In this document: positions 32,914-62,678 of the stretch, in pieces
Position numbering within the stretch: position 1 is the stretch's first letter
Layout of the letters: every line of letters starts with the position of its first letter
Assembly: GCA_963743915.1 (NCBI GenBank)
Contig: CAVURN010000003.1
Span: 448,001-512,000, forward strand
Origin: an uncultured Actinomycetota bacterium
GTDB lineage: Bacteria > Actinomycetota > Actinomycetes > JAHEKZ01
Reading direction: 5' to 3'
DNA: 64,000 bases
Notes under the pieces: generated by a model
The model's database searches: none
The model's input: the letters and a program-made list of their open reading frames with translations, nothing else
Told to the model about the DNA's origin: nothing
Program-made: the position numbers and the translations under genes

Positions 32914-32925
32914 GCCCGCCATTCT

Positions 32926-32983
32926 CTACGCCAGACCGCCACAGTCACGTCGTAGGACGGGGCATCGTGGCGCCCTGGCGTAG
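32926..32983. repeat. 58-bp palindromic intergenic element, copy 1
   Basis: CTACGCCAGACCGCCACAGTCACGTCGTAGGACGGGGCATCGTGGCGCCCTGGCGTAG. Confidence 0.9.
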
Positions 32984-32995
32984 GAGCTGCGGTCG

Positions 32996-34014: not shown

Positions 34015-34933
34015 GACTCCTCCGTCTCGTCGGCCGTGATCGCCAGGAACGCCTGTTCCAGGTCGACCTGCTGCGGCATCAGCCACGAGGGGTACAGCTG
34101 TGCCTCGGCGAGCGCTCGGGCCACGACCGCACCGTCCTCGACCCGGTCCACCAGGATGCGGCCGTCCTGGAGGTGAGCCGAGAAGCCGGCCGCGGCGAGC
34201 ACCTCGAGCGCGCGCGGGGCGTCCGTGATCCCGACGGCGAGCGCGCCGGTCGACTGTGACTGCAGCACCTCGTCGACGGGTCCCGCCGTGACGACCCGCC
34301 CGTGGTTGATGATCGTGACGGTGTCGCAGATCTGCTGCACCTCCCCGAGCAGGTGGGAGGAGAGCAGCACCGTCACCCCGGAGTCGCCGAGAGTTCGGAG
34401 CAGCTGCCGCACCTCACGCATGCCGGCTGGGTCGAGGCCGTTGCTCGGTTCGTCGAGGATCAGCACCGAAGGCTGCTTGAGCAGCGCCGCGGCGATGCCG
34501 AGCCGCTGTCGCATGCCGAGGGAGTAGCCCTTCACACGTTCGTCGGCAGCGTCGGTGAGCTGCACGACGTCGAGGACGGCGTTGACCTGGGTGACGTGGG
34601 GATCTCCGCCGCGGTCGCGAGCAGCTGCAGGTTGAGGCGTCCGGTGAAGGGTGGGAAGAACGCCGGGCTCTCGAGCAGCACACCGATGTCACCGACGACG
34701 TCCGGAAGCGACGACGGGACCGGCTGTCCCAGCACCTGCATGTCGCCCGCGTCGGCGCGCGCGAGCCCGAGCAGGCAGCGCAGCATCGTGGTCTTGCCCG
34801 AGCCGTTGGGCCCGAGGAAGCCGTGCACCCCGCCCTCGGTGACCACCAGGTCGAGCCCGTCGAGTGCGGCCTTGGGGGGCTTGCCTCGTCGACGGTAGGT
34901 CTTGCGCACGTCGGTGGCTTCGATGACTGGCAT
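34011..34933 (-). CDS. ABC transporter ATP-binding protein (frameshift near 34590)
   Basis: GPNGSGKTT Walker A in one frame; YSLGMRQRL and ILDEP in the other. Confidence 0.88.
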
Positions 34934-37823: not shown

Positions 37824-38435
37824 ATGGACGTCGTCGGCGTGGGGCCTCATCCGCATCCGTGGCCGGACGACGCGCGCCTGGATCCTGAGCTGCTCGCGTC
37901 CGGTGACCGACGCAATGTGGTGGACCGCTACCGGTACTGGCGCCGGGAGGCGATCATTGCGGACCTCGACCAGCGGCGACACGGATTCCACGTCGCGATC
38001 GAGAACTGGGAGCACGACTTCAACATCGGCAGCGTGGTGCGAACCGCCAATGCGTTTCTGGCTGCCGAGGTGCACATCGTCGGACGCCGGCGGTGGAACC
38101 GACGCGGTGCGATGGTGACCGACCGCTACCAGCACGTCCGCCACCACGACGACGTCGAGTCGCTGGTCGGCTGGGCGTCCGAGGAAGGGGTGCCGTTGCT
38201 CGGCATCGACAACCTGCCGGGCTCGGTCCCGCTGGAGACCTACCGGCTGCCCGAGCGTTGCGTGCTCGTGTTCGGCCAGGAAGGCCCGGGGCTGTCCGAG
38301 GCCGCGCGTGCGGCGTCCGAGGCGACGTTGTCGATCGCTCAGTACGGGTCGACCCGGTCGATCAACGCGGGAGCGGCCGCGGCCATCGCGATGCACGCCT
38401 GGATCCGCCAGCACGCGGACCCGCCGGCCCCCTGA
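37824..38435 (+). CDS. TrmH/SpoU family RNA methyltransferase
   Basis: NIGSVVRTANAF, FGQEGPGL, GSTRSINA. Confidence 0.93.
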   Translation: MDVVGVGPHPHPWPDDARLDPELLASGDRRNVVDRYRYWRREAIIADLDQRRHGFHVAIENWEHDFNIGSVVRTANAFLAAEVHIVGRRRWNRRGAMVTDRYQHVRHHDDVESLVGWASEEGVPLLGIDNLPGSVPLETYRLPERCVLVFGQEGPGLSEAARAASEATLSIAQYGSTRSINAGAAAAIAMHAWIRQHADPPAP

Positions 38436-38449
38436 CGTCGCACCATTTT

Positions 38450-38507
38450 CTACGCCAGACCGCCATGGTCACGCCGCAGGACGGGTAATCGTGGCGCCCT
38501 GGCGTTG
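38450..38507. repeat. 58-bp palindromic element, copy 2 (left terminal repeat of the nuclease cassette)
   Basis: CTACGCCAGACCGCCATGGTCACGCCGCAGGACGGGTAATCGTGGCGCCCTGGCGTTG. Confidence 0.92.
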
Positions 38508-38511
38508 GGAT

Positions 38512-39447
38512 CTAGGCTGGACGGCGCCGCCTCGCGCGGTCGAAGGCAGCCGCCAGGCGGTTGGCAAGGTTCTGACGGTCGCGCACGAGATCGGTCCAGA
38601 CGATGCGGACCACCTCGAAGCCGAGATCTCGCAGCCGGTCCTCGCGCTTCTTCTCCTCGAAGACCGTCGTGCCCTTCCCGTACTTGACCTCGCCGTCGAA
38701 CTCAGCAATCACACCGAGCTCGACCCACACGAAGTCGACACGTCCGATGAAGCCGCGGTCGTCGAAGAAGTCTTGCTGCTGGCCAGGATCGGGTAGACCG
38801 AGCTCGGCGAAGACGACCCGGCTCAGCGACTCACCAGGACTCTCTGACTTTGCCGTCGAGAAGTGGAGGACTCGTTCCACTCGGCGTCTCTGGCGTCGCG
38901 GCAGCACCGCGAAGGCGTCCCACAGATCCGTCTCGTCGACCAGCCGCTGGGAGAGCGCCGACTCGCACGTCACGACGGCGTCGGGGAAGTCGAGGGTGGC
39001 GGCGCAGTCGACCACGGTGCGGGCGGGTGCGGTCACCGCCAGTGCACCGTCGAAGGTTCGGAATCGAGCAGGCAGCGGCAGCTCGTGCACGCGCAACCCG
39101 CGGTAGTGACGCGGTGGACCCTCAGGGCGGGTGGTGTGGACCACCCCGCCCGGCGAGGTGAGCAACGCGATGCCCTGCAGCGCCGCAGCGCTCGGGTGGC
39201 TGATGAAGGCTCCGGGTTCGAGGGCGAGGATGCCCGCAGCCGCAAGCAGGCAATGGAAGGTGACGGCGTCGGTGCGGGCCGTGGCAACCGTCTCGGCCTC
39301 GGCGTAGACACCGCGTCGGAGGGACCTCCAACGACCGGCCCGAACCTGAGCGCGCACCTCGTCGTCGCTGTAGCCGGCGTCCTGTGCCTGGCGCGCGGTG
39401 AAAACCCCGAGCTGAACGGACGCGGTGGCGTCCAGGTGTGGATTCAT
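38512..39447 (-). CDS. AbiEi-type HTH protein with a C-terminal Vsr/DUF559-like PD-(D/E)XK nuclease domain
   Basis: QLGVFTARQA...WRSLRRGVY (AbiEi N-term); SHPSAAALQG; VTAPARTVVDCA; SESPGES; RVDFVW...IAEFDGEVKY...EKKREDRLRDLGFEVVRIVW. Confidence 0.88.
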   Translation of the reverse strand: MNPHLDATASVQLGVFTARQAQDAGYSDDEVRAQVRAGRWRSLRRGVYAEAETVATARTDAVTFHCLLAAAGILALEPGAFISHPSAAALQGIALLTSPGGVVHTTRPEGPPRHYRGLRVHELPLPARFRTFDGALAVTAPARTVVDCAATLDFPDAVVTCESALSQRLVDETDLWDAFAVLPRRQRRRVERVLHFSTAKSESPGESLSRVVFAELGLPDPGQQQDFFDDRGFIGRVDFVWVELGVIAEFDGEVKYGKGTTVFEEKKREDRLRDLGFEVVRIVWTDLVRDRQNLANRLAAAFDRARRRRPA

Positions 39448-39485
39448 CGGCACAGGGTGGCGCAGTCGTGCGACGCGTGCCGGAC

Positions 39486-39494
39486 TTGTCCACA
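39486..39494. promoter_or_regulatory. DnaA-box match in the promoter of the AbiEi-like gene
   Basis: TTGTCCACA, the actinobacterial TT(G/A)TCCACA consensus, between repeat copy 3 and the start codon. Confidence 0.45.
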
Positions 39495-39505
39495 GCCCCC
39501 GAATT

Positions 39506-39563
39506 CAACGCCAGAGCGCCACGATTACCCGTCCTGCGGCGAGACCATGGCGCCCTGGCGTAG
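39506..39563. repeat. 58-bp palindromic element, copy 3 (right terminal repeat)
   Basis: CAACGCCAGAGCGCCACGATTACCCGTCCTGCGGCGAGACCATGGCGCCCTGGCGTAG. Confidence 0.92.
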
Positions 39564-39569
39564 AAACGG

Positions 39570-39827
39570 TCATGGTGCGGTTCCCCAGCCGGGCCACGAC
39601 CAGGGCTCGAGCTCGGTGAAGTCGAAGGTCTCGGTGGCGGTGAAGACGTAACGCCGTACGGGTGCCGCGGTGTCCTCGGTGAGATAGGGGCTGCTGCCGT
39701 CATCCGGCATGTCGTGCGTCGTGCTGCCGCCGCCAGCACGCTTGATCGTCACCGAGAGGTCCAGGACCGGAAGCTTGAGCTCGGGCTCGTTCACGAATGA
39801 TCGCGCAATGAGCAGGTTCCCCTGCAC
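39570..39827 (-). CDS. Hypothetical protein (85 aa) between repeat copies 3 and 4
   Basis: AGGAG RBS 7 nt before GTG; normal amino-acid composition; no family recognised. Confidence 0.5.
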   Translation of the reverse strand: MQGNLLIARSFVNEPELKLPVLDLSVTIKRAGGGSTTHDMPDDGSSPYLTEDTAAPVRRYVFTATETFDFTELEPWSWPGWGTAP

Positions 39828-39940
39828 GTCGTCGCTCCTGCTTCCCGTGACGGGAGCAGGGCACCCCGCCCCCACGAAGCCAAGAGCCGCGACATCTGCG
39901 CCAGGCGACCCGGAAAAGGTTGCCCCAGCTCCCCCATCTT

Positions 39941-39998
39941 CTACGCCAGAGCGCCACGATTACCTGTCCTGCGGCGCGACCGTGGCGGTCTGGCGTAG
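39941..39998. repeat. 58-bp palindromic element, copy 4
   Basis: CTACGCCAGAGCGCCACGATTACCTGTCCTGCGGCGCGACCGTGGCGGTCTGGCGTAG. Confidence 0.92.
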
Positions 39999-40007
39999 AA
40001 AGGGGGC

Positions 40008-40430
40008 GTGACTGCGAACCTGCCCCCGAACCTGCTGGGCGAACCGCCCGCGACCCTGCTGCCCGAGAACGAGGTCGCCCGCGCCGCACTGGACGCCGGC
40101 ACCTCACCCCGCGAGGTGGCGGCCGCGCACCCCGACTACGCGCTGGCGTGGGCACTGCTCGCCGAGGGCGCACTCGCCGACGGCGAGGCGGTCGCCGCCT
40201 ACGCCTACGCGCGCACGGGTTACCACCGGAGCCTGGACCAGCTGCGACGCAACGGCTGGAAGGGTCACGGTCCCGTGCCGTGGGAGCACGAAGCCAACCG
40301 AGGCTTCCTGCGCAGCCTCAACGCGCTGGGGAAGGCGGCCGCCATCATCGGTGAGGACGACGAGGCGGACCGCTGTGCGCAGTTCCTGCGCGACTCCAGT
40401 CCCACCGCCGCCGAGGCGCTCGCCTCATGA
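40008..40430 (+). CDS. DUF3151 family protein
   Basis: AYAYARTGYHRSLDQLRRNGWKGHGPVPWEHEANRGFLR. Confidence 0.9.
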   Translation: MTANLPPNLLGEPPATLLPENEVARAALDAGTSPREVAAAHPDYALAWALLAEGALADGEAVAAYAYARTGYHRSLDQLRRNGWKGHGPVPWEHEANRGFLRSLNALGKAAAIIGEDDEADRCAQFLRDSSPTAAEALAS

Positions 40431-61599: not shown

Positions 61600-62678
61600 A
61601 TGCCGGAAACCACCGAGGTTTCCCGCGGCTCTGAGACGCCCGCGGCCACTGCCGCCGTCACGCTTCGCGGCCTGCACAAGGCGTTCGGTGACGTCATCGC
61701 CGTGGACGGCGTCGACCTCGACATCTACGACGGCGAGTTCCTCACCCTGCTCGGCCCCTCGGGTTCCGGCAAGACCACGGTGCTGCGGATGATCGCCGGC
61801 TTCGAGCTGCCGACGGCCGGCACCATCGAGCTCTCCGGTGCCGACGTCACCAGCCGCGCACCCTTCGAGCGGGACGTCAACACCGTGTTCCAGGACTACG
61901 CGCTGTTCCCGCACATGTCGGTGCTGCAGAACGTCGAGTACGGCCTGCGGGTCAAGAAGGTGGCCAAGGACGACCGACGCCGTCGCGCGCTCGAGGCCCT
62001 CGCCAGCGTGCAGCTCGCCGGCTTCGAGGACCGCAAGCCGGCTCAGATGTCCGGCGGCCAGCGGCAGCGGGTCGCGCTGGCCCGGGCACTGGTCAACCGC
62101 CCCCGCGTGCTGCTGCTCGACGAGCCGCTCGGTGCCCTCGACCTCAAGCTGCGCGAGCAGATGCAGGTCGAGCTGAAGCAGCTGCAGCGCCAGGTCGGCA
62201 TCACCTTCGTCTTCGTCACGCACGACCAGGAAGAGGCGCTGACGATGTCGGACCGCATCGCGGTCTTCAACTCCGGGCGCATCGAGCAGGTGGGTACCCC
62301 AGCCGAGGTCTACGAGCGCCCGGCGACGCCGTTCGTCGCGGGGTTCGTCGGCACCTCGAACCTGCTGCAGGGGGCCGCCGCCGAGCAGGTCCTCGGCAAC
62401 GCGGGCACCTGTCAGCGTGCGTCCCGAGAAGATCCGGATCGCCAGCGCACTGGAGCGCGCTGGTGAAGGTGAGCACTCGGCGGCCGGCGACGTGCGTGAG
62501 GTCGTCTACGTCGGCGCGGCGACGCGGTTCGTCGTCGACCTGGAGGTCGGTGGGCTACCTCGTCGCGCTGCAGCAGAACTTGCAGACCTCCTCGATGGAG
62601 GTCATGGGGATGCGAGGGCGACACGTTCGTCTCGTGTGGTCGCGAGATCATGAGTTTCGCGTGGCCGACGCCACGTGA
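61600..62678 (+). CDS. Polyamine-type ABC transporter ATP-binding protein (PotA-like; 3' frameshifts)
   Basis: [33 protein letters not shown]; TOBE-like tail split over frames. Confidence 0.9.

Follow-up and report, generated by a model that had tools for sequence, protein, structure and literature searches.

An orphan AbiEi-type nuclease gene bracketed by inverted hairpin repeats in Actinomycetota: a candidate REP-like system

The cassette in its locus

A single gene encoding a helix-turn-helix (HTH) nuclease lies between two inverted copies of a palindromic repeat, here called family A, in a 64,000-nt stretch of the genome of an uncultured Actinomycetota bacterium. The window is this whole stretch (G000:C3:448001-512000), and the source genome, G000, comprises 2.9 Mb in 5 contigs, with 70% G+C and 90% completeness. 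Repeat, gene and repeat together make up a cassette that is present or absent as one unit. The features of the locus are listed below, those of the cassette first; R1 is a covariance model of the family-A repeat.

38438..39587, no strand: cassette of hairpin repeat, gene and hairpin repeat; 1150 nt; a single presence/absence unit according to metagenome contig joints
38440..38516, minus strand: family-A repeat copy 2, downstream of the nuclease gene; R1 93.2 bits, nhmmer, hairpin fold
38512..39453, minus strand: nuclease gene, 313 amino acids (aa); AbiEi fold (winged HTH and C-terminal domain) in residues 1-200 and Vsr/DUF559-type PD-(D/E)xK nuclease fold in residues 203-309
39497..39573, plus strand: family-A repeat copy 3, inverted with respect to copy 2; R1 89.4 bits, hairpin fold
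39570..39875, minus strand: orf101, a small open reading frame (ORF) outside the cassette, between the direct copies 3 and 4; 101 aa, no family match
39932..40008, plus strand: family-A repeat copy 4, abutting the DUF3151 start; R1 92.5 bits
37824..38435, plus strand: SpoU/trmH-like methyltransferase gene, left border of the variable interval; Pfam SpoU_methylase 4.7e-24
40008..40430, plus strand: DUF3151 gene, right border of the variable interval; Pfam DUF3151 5.2e-58
32916..32992, minus strand: family-A solo; R1 86.8 bits
56556..56632, plus strand: family-A solo; R1 89.2 bits

An earlier sequence-only reading of this DNA had described copies 2 (38450-38507) and 3 (39506-39563) as inverted, and 54 of 58 positions do match the reverse complement of copy 3. 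An inverted-repeat search delimits 61-nt arms that are 93% complementary (38447-38507 and 39506-39566), and both copies form hairpins under DNA folding parameters (z -2.4 and -5.1). Exactly one gene is enclosed, as had been reported, on the minus strand (38512-39453), with its stop codon 4 nt (GGAT) from the repeat. In nhmmer coordinates, copy 2 is 4 nt from the stop of the nuclease gene and 9 nt from that of trmH, and the gene-proximal end of copy 3 is 52 nt upstream of the nuclease-gene start. The outward continuation noticed in both copies is present as a GCACCAT / ATGGTGC extension, with a 5-nt insertion or deletion (indel), and its ends nearly coincide with the natural presence/absence unit 38438-39587; in copy 3, it encodes the last five codons and the stop of orf101. 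The CAAC/GTTG variant, which had been taken as peculiar to this pair, is not, given that 6 of the genome's 25 good copies have CAACGCC at the 5' end. The case for a special pair is weakened further in that copy 2 is as similar to copy 4 as to copy 3 (59 nt, 93%). As the same reading had stated, the ends of the cassette show no target-site duplication.

The encoded protein and the family-A repeat

The N-terminal part of the protein matches Pfam AbiEi_4 with 28.8 bits (cut-off 25) and PADLOC AbiEi with an E value of 1.8e-23 over residues 7-194; NCBIfam gave no match to the gene product, and a profile search of the PDB returned 3hrl with an E value of 0.0074. An AlphaFold2 model (pLDDT 93, pTM 0.88) was built from an alignment of ten homologues, A1. 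Residues 1-200 of the model match the AbiEi antitoxin 6y8q_A (Z 12.1) and Rv2827c, 1zel (Z 10.2), while residues 203-309 match the DUF559 protein 3hrl (Z 11.9, root-mean-square deviation 2.5 over 92 aligned residues), the catalytic domain of I-Bth0305I, 3r3p (Z 11.3), and Vsr, 1cw0 (Z 10.2). The two-domain architecture proposed from the letters, an AbiEi-like HTH followed by a Vsr/DUF559-like nuclease, is thus borne out by both folds of the model. The proposed motif D-x9-EFDG-x2-KY held in its EFDG-x2-KY part, and its spacing had to be corrected to D-x10. Across the ten homologues, five residues do not vary (E208, D240, E251, D253 and K257), and the model places them on the first helix and on the second and third strands of the nuclease domain, where they may mark a putative active site.

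The AbiEii toxin gene was said to be missing, and none is adjacent; a search for PF08843 across the genome, which is 90% complete, was negative too. With neither a neighbouring nor a distant AbiEii copy, the gene does not belong to a working AbiE toxin-antitoxin pair. G000 carries nine paralogues, the nuclease gene among them, and near-identical gene copies within one genome occur in none of the genomes compared.

Family A, a hairpin repeat of roughly 60-75 nt, occupies 27 places in G000 according to nhmmer, 25 of them good, and 25 according to the covariance model; five copies are in the window, and 23 lie beyond the cassette pair. The consensus is an imperfect palindrome with a 13-bp outer stem that has one mismatch position, and its centre is conserved, asymmetric and holds a small inner hairpin, so that each copy has an orientation. 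The copies fold better than shuffled sequences, with z from -2.4 to -5.1. No pair in the stem alignment shows compensatory changes, which is to be expected of young copies. Repetitive extragenic palindromic (REP) repeats carry a GTAG (or CGTC) tag at one end. In family A, the core CTACGCC...GGCGTAG places GTAG at both feet, within the palindrome itself, CTAC being kept in 10 and GTAG in 12 of 14 aligned copies. Most of the good copies (18/25) follow a called ORF, at most 22 nt behind its stop codon. At gathering thresholds, Rfam returned tRNA only, and none of its families covers the repeat.

One solo, C1:630602, is flanked by genes that are syntenic in the congeners. The short intergenic spacers there are strongly diverged, too far for the insertion point or a target-site duplication to be fixed. 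We also considered insertion into pre-existing hairpins, and rejected it, since the copy-specific complementarity of the outer flanks equals that of a mismatched-pair control (mean 4.92 vs 4.98). Between two direct family-A copies elsewhere in the genome stands a 477-aa ORF that is amidase-like by translation alone (G000:C5:527492-529053, L026).

The neighbouring genes are, by Pfam, SpoU/trmH-like, DUF3151, PLD and VTT. For orf101, no match was obtained in Pfam, NCBIfam or PADLOC, and weak homologues occupy the same site in the congeners G013 (in two pieces) and G003. Copy 4 (39932-40008) begins 435 nt from the start of copy 3, and its GTAGAAAGG end overlaps a ribosome-binding region conserved among congeners. 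Nearly all of the 13 congeners have CGTAGAAAGG ahead of DUF3151, with five bases between it and a GTG start; G011 has a variant, and in G000 the sequence coincides with the right end of copy 4 (window 40000-40010; loci L012-L024). The terminus of copy 4 therefore either resembles the ribosome-binding region of DUF3151 or was recruited to serve as one. A 90-nt inverted pair in the window (34779-34868 and 61698-61787), 70% complementary and 26.8 kb apart, probably consists of two related coding stretches.

Homologues, co-occurrence and empty sites

Homologues of the nuclease gene were collected at 80 loci of public Actinomycetota genomes, including Cellulomonas, Pseudonocardia, Rhodococcus, Geodermatophilus and Jiangellaceae. 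A gene was counted as bracketed when the 500 nt before it and the 500 nt after it had a common seed of 11 nt or more and an ungapped score of 24 or higher. Among the 76 testable loci, 31 have a repeat no more than 500 nt away at either end of the gene, which agrees with the expectation that the flanks of homologues would carry such repeats. A set of unique loci was then formed from the public loci, minus 3 duplicates, plus the first 10 loci from related genomes. In this set, 36 of 82 homologues are bracketed, by lineage-specific repeats, compared with 1 of 264 other genes in the same loci, and that single gene adjoins a focal gene (Fisher p ~1e-24, a value overstated by the relatedness of the loci). 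The protein of one locus, L004 from the unpublished genome G025, is 100% identical to that of the public L064; it contributes one row to A1 and one unflagged locus to the 82. Seven of the ten best homologues in related genomes are bracketed. The association between gene and repeat is almost certainly real and general across the homologues of Actinomycetota.

The flanking repeat is itself palindromic at 26 loci, as judged by a rough classifier, and the geometry is recurrent. At the homologue loci, the usual distance from the end of the upstream repeat to the start codon is 50-130 nt, and the downstream repeat either overlaps the stop codon or follows it by 0-30 nt; the focal gene, with 52 nt upstream and 4 nt downstream, fits this pattern. 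Within G000, the called genes of 450-1500 nt number 1505, of which 9 pass this test with any repeat and 3 with inverted repeats, namely the focal gene, the paralogue C5:548631-549695 and the ORF C5:569654-570580. A third bracketed paralogue, C5:21006-21782, is found between inverted arrays of a 31-nt unit. Three of the nine paralogues are therefore bracketed, each by a different family (A, B or C) that also has solos elsewhere. The bracketed genes form a class that is widespread in Actinomycetota, single-copy and furnished with its own lineage-specific repeats. Another repeat family of G000, D, flanks in inverted orientation an ORF that is alanyl-tRNA-editing-like by translation alone (C5:569331-570615, L025).

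Covariation of repeat and protein, which had been proposed as a check, was also found: flanking repeats are alike only between loci with proteins that are at least about 55% identical. Similar repeats occur in 0 of 610 pairs below 50% protein identity, in 3 of 17 pairs at 50% or more, and in 2 of 3 pairs at 60% or more. The flanking repeats are dispersed in their own genomes, at 26 places in G037 and 14 in G041 (the genome of L050), and at 7 places in G016 with its own repeat as query or 15 with R1. The repeats multiply within genomes, and the gene does not multiply in the way of an insertion sequence.

In a sample of 20 genomes of the taxonomic family, searched with R1, family A and the gene occur together. 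G000 has 25 places and the orthologue, and G016, from another genus, has 15 places and an orthologue of 56% identity; G011 has 1 relic and lacks the orthologue, and the other 17 genomes have 0 places and no orthologue. A blastn search detected family A in none of 13 congeners. The unpublished genome G033 enters only the orthologue tallies, and no conclusion depends on it or on G025. The G016 orthologue is situated in the same trmH-DUF3151 interval, between related palindromes, and no orf101 is found there. The relic of G011 (L018:1421-1493; nhmmer E 4.7e-8, R1 E 9.6e-4) lies just upstream of DUF3151, at the site of copy 4 in G000. Homologues of 36-42% identity adjoin DUF3151 in five more genomes, in an orientation opposite to that of G000 and G016, so that a homologue is next to DUF3151 in six other genomes in all.

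A further family, E, brackets a homologue in the congeners G005 and G013, and matches to it number 30 in G013, 29 in G008, 14 in G007, 13 in G005 and 5 in G006. G007 keeps only the last ~150 nt of the family-E gene, and this 3'-end remnant indicates that the gene was lost there by deletion; G006 and G008 have clean empty sites for the E cassette. Orthologues of the paralogue flanked by family B (58-66% identity) are present in 9 of 13 congeners, and 3 of 6 such loci, G000 included, are bracketed at a laxer threshold. Apart from two weak matches, the congeners that carry these orthologues yielded nothing for repeat B in its G000 form.

Empty sites for the focal cassette, the existence of which the sequence-only reading had made a matter for relatives to show, were encountered as well. 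The gene next to trmH is DUF3151 in 8 of the 13 congeners, at a distance of 30-200 nt; in G013, orf101-like fragments separate the two genes, and the other 4 loci gave no call. Moreover, contigs assembled from three sediment metagenome runs (X1, X3 and X4, with three 2024 study codes that may belong to one campaign) join position 38437 to 39588, with 47-49 unique letters on each side. This joint omits 1150 nt, that is, copy 2, the gene and copy 3, and its two breakpoints differ from the limits of the extended inverted repeat by no more than 2 and 8 nt. No letters are reported between its two sides, a part that the contig data mark as not known. Comparison of the sequences by eye shows it to be collinear with the junction between trmH and orf101 in G013. 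A further joint, 38426->39992, is seen in one contig with a side of 30 letters and gives a weak hint only, and the joints 38505->39939 (side 28) and 38512->38576 were set aside as probable products of other repeat copies.

Two related cassettes are enclosed by direct duplications that lie outside the palindromes, of 75 nt in G005 (L005:1213-1287 and 2582-2656) and of 58 nt in G027 (L007:1267-1324 and 2617-2674). Both include the stop codon of the neighbouring host gene, and both fold hardly better than shuffled sequences (z -1.75 and -2.0, respectively); they look like very long target duplications. One intergenic site between convergent genes holds a family-A solo in G000 (C2:514021-514079, L111) and the family-E nuclease cassette in G005 and G013 (L005, L145), and in other congeners it is a short gap or a direct junction.

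Likeness to known systems and competing explanations

The layout had been compared with that of REP-associated tyrosine transposase (RAYT) genes flanked by REPs, and the comparison proved apt, since the system matches a REPtron in every tested respect except the class of enzyme. As the sources on REPtrons and REPIN-RAYT systems describe them (PMC2817692, PMC3116915, PMC5581495, 10.1101/2022.05.22.493013, PMC3733652), both have a single-copy gene between inverted copies of a short hairpin repeat, both have a repeat that is dispersed genome-wide, largely behind coding regions, in both the repeats are lineage-specific and track the gene, and in both, synteny of the gene across several lineages is in keeping with vertical descent and loss. 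Against the same accounts, the repeats described here are longer (about 60-80 nt) and are single hairpins instead of REP doublets, and their copy numbers are lower, at 5-27 per family. The enzyme combines an AbiEi and a Vsr/DUF559 fold and is not an HUH/Y1 transposase, the host is an actinomycetotal bacterium, and the cassette shows a clean presence/absence polymorphism.

The protein shares the two-domain AbiEi fold with type IV toxin-antitoxin systems of the AbiE type, such as AbiEi of S. agalactiae (6y8q) and Rv2827c of M. tuberculosis (1zel). It differs from them in that no AbiEii toxin gene is adjacent or elsewhere in the genome, in the fused C-terminal nuclease domain, and in having inverted repeats on both sides of the gene as well as dispersed over the genome. 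With Vsr/DUF559 nucleases (I-Bth0305I, 3r3p; NGO0050, 3hrl) it has in common the fold of its C-terminal 107 residues (Z 10.2-11.9) and acidic and lysine residues that are invariant in the 10 homologues; unlike them, it has no linked cytosine methyltransferase, does not reside in an intron or intein and is fused to an AbiEi-type DNA-binding module, and its Pfam DUF559 score is below the cut-off. Insertion sequences and miniature inverted-repeat transposable elements (MITEs) resemble the system in the gene between inverted termini, the dispersed short copies that have no gene and the clean presence/absence allele. In contrast to insertion sequences, no transposase domain is found in the gene product (Pfam, NCBIfam), each terminus is a complete palindrome and not one arm, and the gene-bearing unit is single-copy, with no target-site duplication seen.

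What the analysis establishes is the arrangement of the locus, the folds of the protein, an association that holds across the family, the joint occurrence of gene and repeat, and an indel of the size of the cassette. On balance, we consider it somewhat probable that the HTH-nuclease, by recognising its own palindrome and cutting it, spreads the repeat, as a REPtron-like system that does without a tyrosine transposase. The HTH domain would bind its palindrome at both arms, in the way that AbiEi proteins attach to inverted repeats; AbiEi is described as binding inverted repeats in its own promoter (PMC7319586). The nuclease domain would then nick or cut at the foot of the hairpin or cruciform, and repair or replication would copy the palindrome to new sites and, more rarely, the whole cassette. 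We prefer this explanation on the grounds that each bracketed paralogue has its own repeat family, that family A and the gene co-occur, and that other candidate enzymes are few. A RAYT/HUH gene, noted as missing from the outset, was indeed not found in G000, where PF01797 (Y1) gave no match and control genomes responded. Profile searches of G000 revealed no DDE_Tnp_1, Transposase_mut or IS110-type genes; there are two rve-type genes, C3:230287 and C5:423394, neither of them near a family-A copy. Around the second of these, C5:423127-425135 contains two rve-type (IS3/IS481-like) matches and fragments with 57-nt direct repeats, among the few transposase genes of the genome. The original suggestion that the protein spreads the hairpins, or itself, is thus supported, all of its computational tests having been favourable, with binding and cutting predicted.

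Several observations weigh against the cut-and-spread explanation. The nuclease domain scores below the cut-off in Pfam, both for DUF559 (18.3 bits, cut-off 20.6) and for MTES_1575 (20.7 bits, cut-off 38.2). At the threshold used, 46 of 82 homologues have no bracket. No 6-mer is common to all repeat families, the best being present in 6 of 36 loci, and with no short motif in common, no common cleavage site is evident. Family D, palindromic and present at about 17 places in G000, brackets no nuclease gene, and a search at E <= 1e-40 detected the family-E gene in G013 and G005 alone, while its repeat persists in G006, G007 and G008. Direct repeats around the 25 family-A places are no longer than those at random sites (mean 8.2 vs 7.9), with no target-site duplication. 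Family A brackets the amidase-like ORF and orf101 too, in both cases in direct orientation, and at the locus itself copies 2 and 3 are each also at the 3' end of a neighbouring gene, so that this single locus could have arisen from repeats of 3' ends alone.

A second explanation is that the gene is a selfish gene of the homing type: another agent would spread the palindromes, and the nuclease would cut its cognate palindrome and be copied into it, or next to it, by repair. The match of the Vsr-like domain to the catalytic domain of the homing endonuclease I-Bth0305I (3r3p, Z 11.3) is in line with this, as are the repeat families that lack a cognate gene (E in G006, G007 and G008, D in G000), the patchy occurrence of the gene among congeners, and the one intergenic site that has the E cassette in G005 and G013 and a family-A solo in G000. 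However, the gene has remained single-copy despite 23 potential landing sites in G000, and family A and the gene co-occur across the 20 genomes, 17 of which have neither. The empty E-cassette sites of G006 and G008 are gaps of 56 and 37 nt, too short for a 78-nt solo; the cassette-less joint of the metagenome contigs likewise reports no letters, although, with the part between its sides marked as not known, a solo might stand there. Taken together, we regard homing as unlikely, though by no means far-fetched.

It could also be supposed that the protein is an autoregulated regulator of the AbiEi type, with the upstream palindrome as operator and the downstream one as terminator, the dispersed copies being independent REP-like 3'-end elements and the nuclease serving, for example, defence or repair. 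AbiEi proteins are described as autoregulating through inverted repeats (PMC7319586), and the palindrome 52 nt upstream of the start and the 18 of 25 copies within 22 nt after a stop codon would suit such a role. Still, a regulator explains neither why operator and terminator should share the same 60-nt sequence, nor why each paralogue should have its own dispersed family, nor the joint appearance and loss of gene and repeat, nor the change of repeat, gene and repeat as one indel unit; and a scan of 38300-40100 detected no T-tract terminator and no sigma-70-like promoter. This explanation appears improbable to us.

Very improbable, in our judgement, is that the gene is the cargo of a composite element, in which an unlinked transposase would act in trans on two MITE-like repeats that carry it by chance. 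The flanking of the amidase-like ORF and of orf101 by family A would be natural for such an element, and the two rve-type transposase genes of G000 could provide the activity, but these are not near any family-A copy, no target-site duplication was seen, and the bracketing of 36/82 members of one protein family, against 1/264 neighbours and each time by other repeats, would be left without explanation. That repeats simply favour the 3' ends of genes, with the nuclease gene merely caught between two of them, is hardly credible: copy 2 does follow the stops of trmH and of the nuclease gene, and copy 3 abuts that of orf101, but the family-wide enrichment of bracketing, the cassette-sized indel and the same layout around the G016 orthologue, where there is no orf101, all argue against it.

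To our knowledge, REP/RAYT systems, mainly those of Proteobacteria, are the only ones in which a partner enzyme of dispersed palindromic repeats has been identified, and we know of no mobilising agent for most other hairpin repeats of bacteria. In the literature searched, no description was found of HTH-DUF559 genes paired with cognate repeats. We tentatively propose that the orphan 'AbiEi antitoxin / DUF559' genes of Actinomycetota may be the enzymes of a second, independently evolved REP-type system instead of antitoxins, each recognising and cutting its own palindrome, generating and maintaining a lineage-specific hairpin family behind gene ends and occasionally relocating as a cassette with both flanking hairpins. 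If this is true, a PD-(D/E)xK nuclease joined to an AbiEi-type DNA-binding domain would be the second enzyme class tied to such repeats, and a very large family that is routinely mis-named, as 'type IV toxin-antitoxin antitoxin' or 'DUF559', would gain a function, and unexplained repeats in the genomes of high-GC Gram-positive bacteria would be accounted for. The natural pairs of protein and 60-nt target offer material for testing sequence-specific recognition.

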